From a virus: DNA of 64,000 bases. The notes under the pieces are model-generated. The model was not told the DNA's origin, did no database searches, and was given only the letters and a program-made list of their open reading frames with translations. The translations under genes were made by a program, and so were the position numbers. The DNA lies in IMG/VR virus record IMGVR_UViG_3300042485_001041, positions 17,219-81,218 of that record. One strand, 5' to 3'. Shown piece after piece: positions 18,997 through 31,531 of this stretch (position 1 is its first letter; every line of letters begins with the position of its first letter).

Positions 18997-19043
18997 GTTA
19001 CTCGTGAGTAACCTACTGCTGAGTAATGTTACTGGTCAGTAAC
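18997..19043. promoter_or_regulatory. Three tandem 16-bp palindromic operators GTTACT-N4-AGTAAC
   Basis: 18997-19012 and 19028-19043 match exactly, 19012-19027 is degenerate; directly upstream of int. Confidence 0.7.
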
Positions 19044-19051
19044 TTAAAGGT

Positions 19052-19089
19052 CAAAAAATAGCCCCTAGACCAGAACCGATCTAGGGGCG
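19052..19089 (-). terminator. Intrinsic terminator ending the leftward early operon
   Basis: GCCCCTAGA...TCTAGGGGC stem followed on the minus strand by TATTTTTT. Confidence 0.75.
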
Positions 19090-28486: not shown

Positions 28487-28650
28487 TAGTTATTCCCCTT
28501 TAGTTTTCCAGTAAAAGATAATTCGATGATGAATGCTCGGTTATATGCCAAGAAGTTTTCAAGATCGCCAATAGTTTCGAAATCCTCTTTACGATTAAAA
28601 ATCTCTTTGCGATTCCATTGATTAACGATGCGATAAGTTGCTGTAATCAT
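28486..28650 (-). CDS. 54-aa hypothetical protein (not in ORF track)
   Basis: MITATYRIVNQWNRKE...; TAATG coupling at both ends. Confidence 0.55.
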   Translation of the reverse strand: MITATYRIVNQWNRKEIFNRKEDFETIGDLENFLAYNRAFIIELSFTGKLKGNN

Positions 28651-28817
28651 TATTTAGTACCTGCGATCTTCAAGTTCTTGATTGCGTTGAAGTCGAAAGT
28701 TGAGTAATAACGAGTTCCGTCATTTAGTAGTAAGTCGATGCTCGAAGGTGTGATGCGACCACGAGCGATGATTTTGCCGTCTTTATCTATGAACACTTGA
28801 TCGGTATTTTTCTTCAT
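28650..28817 (-). CDS. 55-aa hypothetical protein (not in ORF track)
   Basis: MKKNTDQVFIDKDG...; RBS AAGGGA. Confidence 0.55.
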   Translation of the reverse strand: MKKNTDQVFIDKDGKIIARGRITPSSIDLLLNDGTRYYSTFDFNAIKNLKIAGTK

Positions 28818-28907
28818 TTCGTTTCCCTTTGTTTTTACTGGTGAAATTGATTATCGATTTGATAACCACCACATCGCACCGATTTACTCGATGCGATGTA
28901 GAAGCGA

Positions 28908-29252
28908 TCAGATAGTTAGAAGTCGAAGTGCTGAGTGAATTGATTTACCGAGTTGTAACGCACGCTGTTGCGCCTCTTCTGTCAGTTCAACTCGATTGCC
29001 GTCACGAACTGAATTGGGAAAGTAACCCTTGCCAGCGCACAGAAGAGAAGTCCAGAGAAGATCGAGTTCGCTCTGGGTAAGTGTGATCGTTGCGGTTGGT
29101 TCATCGGTAGCAATAGCCGACCAGCACCATGAGCAGAAGCCGTCACGAGTTGCGATTACATCAGTTCTAGTTGCTTGAAGATGATTAATACAATGAAGGC
29201 TCTGGCACTTTTGAATTGAAGGTGCTGTTGAAGTAATTTCGCCTAGTTTCAT
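28908..29252 (-). CDS. First ORF of the leftward operon, Cys-rich (start re-assigned to MKLGEI)
   Basis: CxxxxC...CSWC; purine-rich RBS upstream. Confidence 0.6.
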   Translation of the reverse strand: MKLGEITSTAPSIQKCQSLHCINHLQATRTDVIATRDGFCSWCWSAIATDEPTATITLTQSELDLLWTSLLCAGKGYFPNSVRDGNRVELTEEAQQRALQLGKSIHSALRLLTI

Positions 29253-29292
29253 TTTCTTTCCATTCCAGTAATGATTAATTGAATACATCGAG

Positions 29293-29985
29293 TTATGTAT
29301 TCACCCCACTAGTAACCAGAGATAGATCGCTGTCTATTTACCAGTTACTAGTAGAGAAAACACATAAGCAGATAATTACTAATTGAGTTGCCCAGTTCGT
29401 TCACTATGCTTCATGCGGATTGGTTACCGATTGCGCTGTTATTAACAGATAGTCCATGTGAACTGGATTCAATCTCCATAATTATTTTCCCTAAGCCATA
29501 TCTGCTATTCACAATTAATTTCTTAATCGTTGGAGTTGTTTACATTTAATGAAGTTAATCGCTCGTTATTAGTAGTAATCGCTAGTTAATAAATAGTGGA
29601 TTCTATTTATTCATTCATCGCGTAGTAATAAGTTTTCGCAATTAGATTTTCATCTCTTGAATTATTCGCTCGTTATTCGTAATCGCATTCACTAATAGCA
29701 TCTAGTAGATAGATCGCTTTCGCCTTAGTTAGTTATTAATCGAGTTCATTGGTACAGAACACAATTAAAAGAATGCGATTCGTAATCGCAGATTTTCTTA
29801 GCCTCTATTTAATTAAGTTATTTAGTAACGATCGCCAGTTGAGTACCGCGCCTTAGCGTTGTTAGTTCGGGTCAGTTCACCGACCATTACTAAATAACTT
29901 TGAGCATTTTTCACTTCTGATTAATAAACCGATCAGTTGCCCCTAGAGGATTCTGAAAAGATCGATCGTTGGTCGCGTGCGCTAT
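29293..29985 (-). ncRNA. Putative large (~700 nt) structured non-coding RNA
   Basis: No ORF of 60 aa or more; multiple long-range stems (see findings); in the stem examined in detail the mismatches read as G-U on the minus strand. Confidence 0.6.
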
Positions 29986-29991
29986 GGGAGA

Positions 29992-30021
29992 AATGTACCA
30001 CTCAGCCCGATCAGTTGATAA
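29992..30021 (-). promoter_or_regulatory. Candidate leftward promoter (extended -10 TGGTACATT; weak -35 TTATCA)
   Basis: Minus-strand TGn-TACATT at 30000-29992, just upstream of the structured region. Confidence 0.4.
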
Positions 30022-30540
30022 CAGGCTCGATCTATTTACTCCGCGTTGCCGATCTAATTGTTAAGCCGAATGAGCGTGCGTGGGATTGAGCGTAAATACA
30101 CCTGAGAGGGCGTAGAAGGGGTCTAAGAGCCGAGTACCCCCAGTTTGAAGGTAATCACCCCAGAGCAGGTGAGATCGTGGCTCATAGGGCGCGTGTGGAG
30201 AGGGGTGTTTATGCGTTAATGTCCGAATTGCCCGATATATGTAAGTCCACGCCGACAATGTGAAAGTTAGATAGTTAGATGCGCCGATGCGCCAGAGCCA
30301 GATGAAATTGCGCCGATGTATTTTTTTTCTCAGTATTAACAATTTAATCACTAAGAGAGAGTAGAGAAGATAAGAAGAAAACAATTAAGAGGGAGATGTA
30401 ATTAATTAATGATTAGTAGAAAAGATTATCCATTAGTTGATCGAGTTGATTCAAACAGCAGATTTAATTTATTGATGTGGTTAGCGAAGTACCAGATGAA
30501 TAACCCCGATGTAGTAGAGATAGAGATTGATTCACATAAC

Positions 30541-30829
30541 TATTAATAAATAATAATAAATAATAAATGATCGATGTGATGATGTGATCGATGTGAACTC
30601 GAATAGCAGGTGGTTAGTACCTGATAACAACTGGGTGGCACACCTGACAGTCTGGTGTTACGCGCACAGCCACGCCACTTGCCAGAGCAGTAGCCGAAGA
30701 TCGTGTCACCAAGATTGTCACCAAGTTAGTTAATCAATAACTATTTACGCTCATGTTAACTAGTTCGCACCTGACTAGTAATCAGGAGTAATTGTTAACA
30801 CCGACCCCCACCCCCTACCCCACCCACCC
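30541..30829. repeat. Low-complexity repeats: TAATAAA units, GATCGATGTGA x2, GTCACCAAG x2 and a C-run
   Basis: Read directly from the non-coding divergence point between the leftward and rightward blocks. Confidence 0.7.
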
Positions 30830-30922
30830 TTAATCGCACGCACGCAAGTGCCGAGCCAGGTGTCAGACACGGTTGACGACTTTTACGCTGAGGCAGTGCG
30901 GATTTTAAGCCATAATCGCCAT

Positions 30923-31531
30923 ATGCCCGCTCACAGCGTCTGCCGCACCTGCGGAAAGAAGATTAAGCAAGAAGGCTCCACTTGGAGTTCTCATTTGGGC
31001 GATAAGTGCTGGGGCAAGGGCACCCACAACCCCGTTCACACCGTTATCTCAGAAGGCTTAAAATCGGCCCCAGTATCAGTTCCTAGTCGTTTGCTTAATG
31101 AAACCTTGTTTCGTGGGTTGCCAGGTACTAAGTTGGAGACTCCACTTGGAATGCACTGGTCATCTGTATCGGGGCTTGACCACGTTTCTGGTTATTCGGG
31201 AGGAATAGGTAGTGGCGCTAGTCTATTTTCTGGCGGAGAAGGTAAAAAGGGCGAGAAGTCAACTATCATTCACGCTAAGGTAAACAACCGAGCAATCATC
31301 AACCCTCGCTCATCAGAGGGTAAGAAGATGGCTGGTCGTCATCAAATTTGGGGCGGAGGAGCCCCTGAGTACGAAGAGACGGTTCGCCCTGGTGCAAACG
31401 TTGAAGTAACTAAGTTAACTCGTGTACGTAACGTTACCGATGCCTCTCATGACGAATCTGGTAAGTACACTCCAGCGGTAACAAAGCAACGAGAGATCCG
31501 TTACAAGAAACCAAGACAGGTACAAGCATAA
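30923..31531 (+). CDS. ADP-ribosyltransferase-like protein with N-terminal Zn finger (start re-assigned)
   Basis: CRTCG...H..C; LFRG...GMHWSS...EYEETV; CATAAT 6 nt before ATG. Confidence 0.65.
   Translation: MPAHSVCRTCGKKIKQEGSTWSSHLGDKCWGKGTHNPVHTVISEGLKSAPVSVPSRLLNETLFRGLPGTKLETPLGMHWSSVSGLDHVSGYSGGIGSGASLFSGGEGKKGEKSTIIHAKVNNRAIINPRSSEGKKMAGRHQIWGGGAPEYEETVRPGANVEVTKLTRVRNVTDASHDESGKYTPAVTKQREIRYKKPRQVQA

Follow-up and report, generated by a model that had tools for sequence, protein, structure and literature searches.

What is carried by a stretch of some 700 nucleotides that lies between divergent phage genes and seems to be folded rather than translated? The question arises at positions 29293-29985 of the window analysed here, a stretch of 64,000 nucleotides that corresponds to bases 17219-81218 of an 81-kb IMG/VR virus record. 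Genes in the window are oriented rightward up to 16438, leftward between 29288 and 16620, and once more rightward from approximately 30409-30848, and the flagged stretch is therefore a divergent intergenic region, flanked by leftward and rightward genes. A sequence-only reading had described the whole of it as heavily paired and had proposed a single, large, minus-strand noncoding RNA in the size range of the GOLLD and ROOL RNAs.

The virus is a tailed phage that encodes a terminase, a portal protein, a major capsid protein, collagen-like fibres, a ribonucleotide reductase, and a tyrosine integrase. Its major capsid protein shares 62% identity with its counterparts in Streptomyces phage BRock and the relatives of that phage, and its AAA_5 ATPase is 36-39% identical to ATPases of Brevibacterium and Gordonia phages. 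From the capsid and ATPase genes, a freshwater actinobacterium is a reasonable inference for the host; DNA of the window is found in lake-water metagenomes from more than 12 studies. The leftward operon encodes AAA_5/VWA (CobS/CobT-like) proteins, with the AAA_5 ATPase placed 3 kb downstream in the operon. A pattern scan of the operon strand yields one strong terminator at the operon end (19088-19061) and one weak site inside the operon (22532-22513), and the strong terminator thus defines a leftward transcription unit of approximately 11 kb. The terminator that marks the end of this unit (in 19026-19088, minus strand) is composed of a 12-bp stem with seven G-C pairs and a T-run, and it is directly followed by a promoter-like site, TTGACC-17-TAACAT, ahead of the integrase gene. 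The window contains no tRNA genes, and Pfam and PHROGs searches with the small flanking proteins were uninformative.

Structure and conservation of the element at 29286-29530

The stems listed in the sequence-only reading are all present in 29293-29985, and no ORF of 60 or more amino acids is found within 29289-30060. The first stem pairs 29293-29316 with 29344-29367 through 24-nt arms that are 79% complementary, and four of its five mismatches are C-A or A-C on the plus strand and, consequently, G-U on the minus strand. The inner stem CCAGTTC/GAACTGG is also present as described. The pairing of AGCAGATA with TATCTGCT (29367-74 with 29499-506) is not conserved among relatives; the closing helices that are supported by covariation sit a few bases inside it. 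The description of a heavily paired region of approximately 700 nt is not borne out over the full length; only two islands, both on the minus strand, fold beyond chance. Compared with 100 dinucleotide shuffles, the folding z-score of 29286-29530 is -4.2 for the minus and -1.9 for the plus strand, and 29760-29910 has z-scores of -3.8 and -1.8, respectively. The remainder folds no better than shuffles, with z-scores of +0.1 for 29531-29760 and +2.4 for 29891-29990 (100 dinucleotide shuffles each). The two islands account for the z-score of the whole region, which was computed with only 20 shuffles and is -3.4 for the minus versus -0.9 for the plus strand.

Searched by blastn, 50,697 phage records gave no match to the complete intergenic region. 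In viral contigs, no usable loci were obtained with either the pair of flanking proteins or an alignment built on the 126-aa protein, and a metagenome scan gave only two distant loci (L002 and L003), neither of which shares noncoding sequence. Using the AAA_5 ATPase as the query, nine syntenic viral contigs were obtained. By blastn, L004, L005, and L012 retain the noncoding block 29355-29531 at 72-74%, a level as high as that of the adjoining coding DNA. Two motif patterns taken from the alignments brought the set to 18 other IMG/VR contigs in total; the pattern match in L013 was rejected as a chance occurrence in unrelated sequence. A covariance model (R1) scores 106-275 bits in eight other loci, plus a contig-end fragment. 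The element is carried by all ATPase-derived loci that have enough upstream sequence (6/6), and it heads the same operon in every locus. A single copy is present in the window's own record and in each of three complete relatives (94-100 kb). The core pattern has no match in 185,579 prokaryote genomes (one per species), the genomes of BRock and Cantare have no copy of the element, and in the pattern searches it occurs on phage contigs only. The element is specific to abundant, uncultured lake phages and sits where the phage decides on expressing a large operon of mostly unknown genes; its covariance model could be used for charting this phage lineage in metagenomes.

The alignments draw on about 12 distinct sequences from one virus lineage. 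On an alignment of nine sequences made with MAFFT only, RNAalifold yields 60 pairs, 35 of which are compensatory. In pair counts on the same alignment, standard pairs fill 94.2% of cells, compared with 31-45% in slid controls, in which partners were shifted by 1-3 columns; double changes are seen in 38 of the 60 pairs, and the observed pairing values were reached by none of 500 column shuffles. In the model-fitted alignment, 44 of 71 pairs are compensatory. Three core helices hold across both subtypes of the element, an AT-rich one that includes the window and a shorter, GC-rich one. The wobble pairs are asymmetric, with 63 G-U against 13 A-C on the minus strand, which identifies an RNA on the operon strand and not a DNA palindrome; the earlier preference for a minus-strand RNA over a DNA cruciform is borne out by these counts. 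Comparative evidence strongly supports the 29286-29530 element as a genuine and new family of structured RNA. Folded RNAs that covary to such an extent are seldom found, and those known have generally led to a new sensor, ribozyme, or protein partner. As for a leader peptide, a 22-codon frame in the core was rejected, having neither a conserved start nor a third-position bias.

The element (29286-29530, minus strand, approximately 240 nt) is delimited by the covariance model, the covariation, the strand asymmetry, and its z-score of -4.2. It opens with P0, a 7-bp hairpin with an invariant GAAA loop (29510-29530, minus strand; four of seven pairs compensatory), after which comes the invariant GUGAAUAGC (29512-29504, minus strand). 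The element further comprises three stacked closing helices with conserved internal loops and a three-way junction. This junction forms the core (29392-29466, minus strand), in which 15 of 18 pairs are compensatory in a MAFFT alignment of 11 sequences from both subtypes. On the minus strand, the core comprises a closing stem (29459-29466/29392-29399), an inner stem (29449-29452/29404-29407), a variable hairpin (29436-29448), and a hairpin with the conserved loop UAAYCAAU (29413-29431), and it displays the invariant unpaired motifs CAUGGA, GYGCAR, CGA, and UGAA. The variable hairpin contains an insertion of 20-50 nt in L016 (1076-1183), L020 (6286-6376), and L023 (minus strand); stems of variable length such as this one are typical of structured RNAs.

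The first stem of the sequence-only reading belongs to a long hairpin of 26+5 bp (~31 bp; 29293-29367, minus strand) that is paired in 96-100% of cells across homologues. Its outer stem, CUUAUGUGUUUUCU/GGUGAAUACAUAA, is invariant and includes conserved U-G pairs. The sequence of its inner stems is wholly different between relatives and the pairing is retained (complete covariation), and in its apical 5-bp stem every cell is paired (100%) and all five pairs are compensatory. The apical loop, CAGCGA (29327-29332, minus strand), differs in L023 and in the GC-rich subtype. A contig in one lake run (X5), from a relative resembling L027, matches the window only at 29278-29533 and diverges on both sides, which indicates that the element is a discrete module. 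For biochemistry, it offers a defined target of 240 nt with clear designs for compensatory mutations. Two GTGAATA repeats flank the core and the long hairpin, and in a contig of run X5 (depth 45) position 29305 is fused to 29505 between them. This joint, which skips 29306-29504 and has only 28 letters on one side, may represent a natural deletion variant without the element or a mapping artefact, or may come from another organism.

Organization of the leader and its surroundings

The region as a whole is a modular 5′ leader, approximately 730 nt long, of the leftward AAA_5/VWA operon; 29293-29985 is one leader but not one RNA machine. An extended -10, TGGTACATT (29992-30000, minus strand), had been pointed out at the head of the operon, and it aligns with relatives, placing the predicted start near 29985. 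Its counterparts TGGTTTAAT, TGATTTAAT, and TGGTACGCT stand at the same distance from the GCGCACGCG box in L004, L017, L018, and L019. From this conservation, we infer a promoter at 30000-29992. The leader lies downstream of it, with a conserved 5′ module of approximately 95 nt (29891-29985, minus strand) that consists of the GCGCACGCG box, a 3-bp hairpin closed by a tetraloop (29940-29949, minus strand), and then CAGAAGUGAAAAA. In relatives, the hairpin reads CCC-UUCG-GGG or CCC-CUAG-GGG, with UUCG found in three of them. By blastn, the module is kept at 70-78% in L018, L004, and L005, and L008 and L025 match its 22-nt core at 95-100% identity. Overall, the 5′ module has no thermodynamic structure (z +2.4).

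There is considerable variability in the spacing between the conserved 5′ motif and the core, which ranges from 170 to 511 nt among relatives, with 170-185 nt in the compact ones and about 500 nt in the window. The lineage-specific middle of the window's leader (29531-29890) contains a 20-bp hairpin, a terminator-like hairpin, and three short repeats, which are without counterpart in most relatives. The 20-bp hairpin (29815-29900, minus strand) is built from 20-nt arms (29815-29834/29881-29900) that are 90% complementary, with 14 bp perfect and a 46-nt loop, and it has a folding z-score of -2.9 to -3.8 on the minus strand. It has no sequence homologue in relatives, which display only small, non-significant hairpins at that position, after the 5′ module. 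The terminator-like hairpin (29774-29790) has 7 bp and T-rich tails on both strands, and the left arm of this repeat pair can alternatively pair with 29681-29690 (10/10). It has no equivalent in the leaders of L004, L010, L017, and L019; because it separates the element from the promoter in the window, either read-through or a second promoter must be assumed there. The repeats are three direct copies of AAUAACGAGCGAUUA (29556-70, 29576-90, and 29663-77, minus strand), and a search for this motif gave four matches against 0.39 expected, three of them within 29556-29678. Repeats resembling AAUAACGAGCGAUUA also occur in L019. A 9-bp hairpin (29588-29611, minus strand) lies inside the otherwise unstructured stretch 29556-29678.

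The leader is followed by a 126-aa first gene (28908-29288, minus strand). The ORF start listed for this gene, 29288, falls inside a small 8-bp hairpin, and the homologues P0004-P0006 start at the residue equivalent to M13. A Shine-Dalgarno sequence, GGAAAG, with an ATG at 29252 is present (29250-29261, minus strand), and this ATG is the likely true start. The first gene downstream of the element varies between loci: the 126-aa gene is absent from L004 and L005, in which the element directly precedes a homologue of the 55-aa gene (28650-28817). The element ends 0-100 nt ahead of the ribosome-binding site of the first gene, and both its orientation and this close spacing are conserved. No intrinsic terminator was found between the element and the first gene in any locus scanned, nor was a conserved terminator found in the relatives' leaders that would serve as an expression platform. 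Occlusion of the Shine-Dalgarno sequence was not found either, as its region is predicted to be mostly unpaired (P 0.43-0.86) in 15 of 15 homologues. The one alternative pairing seen, the small 8-bp hairpin (29281-29302, minus strand), re-uses the 3′ strand of the long hairpin, so the two are mutually exclusive. It is present, with matching base changes, in L004, L005, L017, L018, L019, and L027 and absent from L012, L016, L020, L023, and L026, and it is found in only about half of the AT-rich members.

Other sites are conserved on the rightward side of the leader. A GC-rich noncoding block between the two divergent promoters (30126-30248) is kept at approximately 74% in L004, L005, L016, and L023 and includes the motifs TAGAAGCCC and AATCACCCCAGAG. 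RNAalifold lends this block no covariation support (covariation term +0.8), and relatives lack a homologue of the 107-aa ORF that overlaps it. A candidate rightward promoter or operator, at 30304-30340, immediately precedes the rightward genes; it contains a 31-nt stretch with TTGCGCCGATGTATTTTTTTTCTC that is 97% identical in L019 and 84% identical (over 37 nt) in L027 and is retained in L004 and L005 as well. A similar sequence, CCGATGTAT, adjoins the leftward promoter of L010. A 49-aa ORF (30584-30733, plus strand) has 47-55% protein identity in L004, L005, L008, L010, and L017, and a 45-aa ORF (30409-30546, plus strand) has 50% identity over 26 aa in relatives. Given these conserved tiny ORFs, the rightward operon probably starts near 30409 and not at 30848. 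GATC occurs 8.5-9.7 times per kb in 29286-30400, compared with 4.2 per kb in the whole window.

Possible functions of the element

The structure, strand, position, and conservation of the element, its single copy per genome, and its restriction to phage contigs are the observations on which functional readings can be built. About half of our confidence goes to a cis-acting regulatory or processing leader of the operon mRNA. In such a model, minus-strand transcription from the conserved extended -10 at 30000-29992 would give the leader of approximately 730 nt, and the ~240-nt element (29530-29286) would be its functional heart. The core would provide a putative binding site for a small ligand or for a protein of the phage or the host, and the long hairpin, through its invariant base, could re-pair with a downstream complement. 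The long hairpin would then set the translation, the processing (as an RNase III-type substrate), or the stability of the operon mRNA as the putative regulatory output. The lack of a terminator before the first gene is as expected for a leader and not for a free small RNA. Together with the distance of 0-100 nt to the ribosome-binding site and the sparse terminators of the operon, it favours a cis leader over a small RNA or antitermination.

A bolder proposal, which we put forward tentatively as a possibility, is that the element represents a new ligand-sensing (riboswitch) or catalytic RNA class of a freshwater, probably actinobacterial phage lineage, and that it would gate the ~11-kb operon and report the metabolic state of the host. 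As is generic for riboswitches, it combines an aptamer-like junction, invariant unpaired bases, and covarying stems, and it is located in a 5′ UTR.

It is unlikely that the element instead acts in trans, as a stable noncoding RNA that is cut from the leader or made from a nearer promoter and that serves, for example, as a protein decoy or scaffold in counter-defence. Its complex fold, GAAA tetraloop, and invariant loops would suit such an RNA, the variable first gene implies that the element is not tied to one coding sequence, and the long hairpin could be a processing site. A further hint comes from two metatranscriptome runs of two studies, in which low-depth contigs cover 29436-29693 and 29567-29754 and nothing else of a 2.3-kb stretch. 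This hint is weak because contigs reveal neither strand nor RNA origin, and their ends and the uncovered parts say nothing about transcript ends. Against a trans-acting RNA, no homologue has a terminator or defined 3′ end after the element, orientation and close spacing to the first ribosome-binding site are conserved, and no candidate partner protein was identified among the flanking proteins with Pfam or PHROGs.

We consider it improbable that the leader acts in processive antitermination of the put or nut type, in which the RNA would modify the polymerase, directly or through a phage protein, for read-through of the ~11-kb unit. Compatible with this activity are the location, in a leader that follows a conserved promoter and precedes a long phage operon, and the hairpins with conserved loops on covarying stems. 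However, with one strong terminator at the operon end and one weak internal site, nothing evident is there to override, and no second copy is present on the divergent rightward operon or elsewhere in the genome. No boxA-like motif is evident, and the size and architecture of the element are unlike those of put RNA, which is composed of two stems and is approximately 70 nt long.

The original proposal, in which all of 29293-29985 is one large ornate noncoding RNA like GOLLD or ROOL, is largely refuted and now appears very unlikely. The whole region does fold better than shuffles on the minus strand, it has a promoter just upstream, and it contains two structured islands; however, only the ~240 nt of 29286-29530 are conserved and covarying, the conserved 5′ and 3′ modules are 170-511 nt apart in relatives, the middle is without homologue, 29531-29760 folds at chance, and the 5′ module is unstructured. 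The region reaches the size class of GOLLD and ROOL because a lineage-specific insertion lengthens the leader, and neither model matches it even at E up to 10. A DNA-level element, such as an origin, a cruciform, or an operator array between the divergent operons, is equally hard to credit: the divergent site has short direct repeats, a doubled GATC density (8.5 versus 4.2 per kb), and a CTAG-containing palindrome in the 5′ module, but one-sided wobble pairs are not expected of a DNA palindrome, the three-way junction that covaries is non-palindromic, and the 5′ hairpin of relatives carries a UUCG tetraloop.

Comparison with known RNAs

The expectation of an RNA outside the known families was correct for the part of ~240 nt at 29286-29530, not for the whole 700 nt. 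The element has no match among the 4227 families of Rfam, and together with its GC-rich homologue from L010 it gave only spurious matches to miRNA hairpins, far below gathering scores. Neither a cmscan search of the 64-kb window at the gathering score nor one of 28500-31500 at E up to 10 gave a match to any Rfam family, GOLLD, ROOL, and introns included, and a search of 29240-29560 at E up to 10 gave none to GOLLD or ROOL. No description of the element was found in a text search of the literature, which is not searchable by sequence. Group I and group II introns were rejected, as there is no Rfam match and the element, which follows a promoter and precedes the first gene, interrupts no gene.

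Similar to GOLLD (RF01998) and ROOL (RF03087), the element is a phage-borne, elaborately folded RNA. It differs from both in size, as its conserved unit of ~240 nt compares with 500-800 nt for these classes (~800 nt for GOLLD and ~580 nt for ROOL), and it matches neither model. It also differs in context, being a leader directly before an operon in a window without tRNA genes. Cobalamin riboswitches (RF00174 and RF01689) resemble it in being complex leaders of approximately 200 nt upstream of CobS/CobT-like genes, and a few short motifs of the element look similar (GCAG-CGGUAA and GGUGAAU). This class was rejected, since no Infernal match was obtained (321-base search space, E up to 10), there is no B12 box, and the junction architecture differs.

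The orphan riboswitch candidates and structured 5′ leaders of the Breaker/Weinberg type share more with the element, which likewise is located in a 5′ UTR on the gene strand and comprises a multi-helix junction, invariant unpaired bases, covarying stems, a variable hairpin insertion, and a GNRA tetraloop. The differences are that it has no Rfam match, has neither a terminator nor a helix that sequesters the Shine-Dalgarno sequence, and occurs on phage contigs only.

Lambdoid early leaders (nut boxB; HK022 put) and the RNase III hairpins of lambda N and T7 are also reminiscent of the element in being placed after an early-type promoter and ahead of the first gene in a long operon, and the lambdoid leaders in their hairpins with conserved loops as well. 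No similarity of sequence or fold is seen, the element occurs once per genome and not on both divergent operons, and, unlike in nut and put leaders, its operon lacks internal terminators that would have to be overridden. RNase III hairpins are found in the lambda N leader and in T7 early mRNAs. Like these, the element places an irregular hairpin, long enough for more than two helical turns, shortly before a ribosome-binding site. With 26+5 bp, the hairpin at 29293-29367 is an irregular double-stranded stem of 20 bp or more within an mRNA leader, and by analogy it fits a site of RNase III-type processing or of protein binding.
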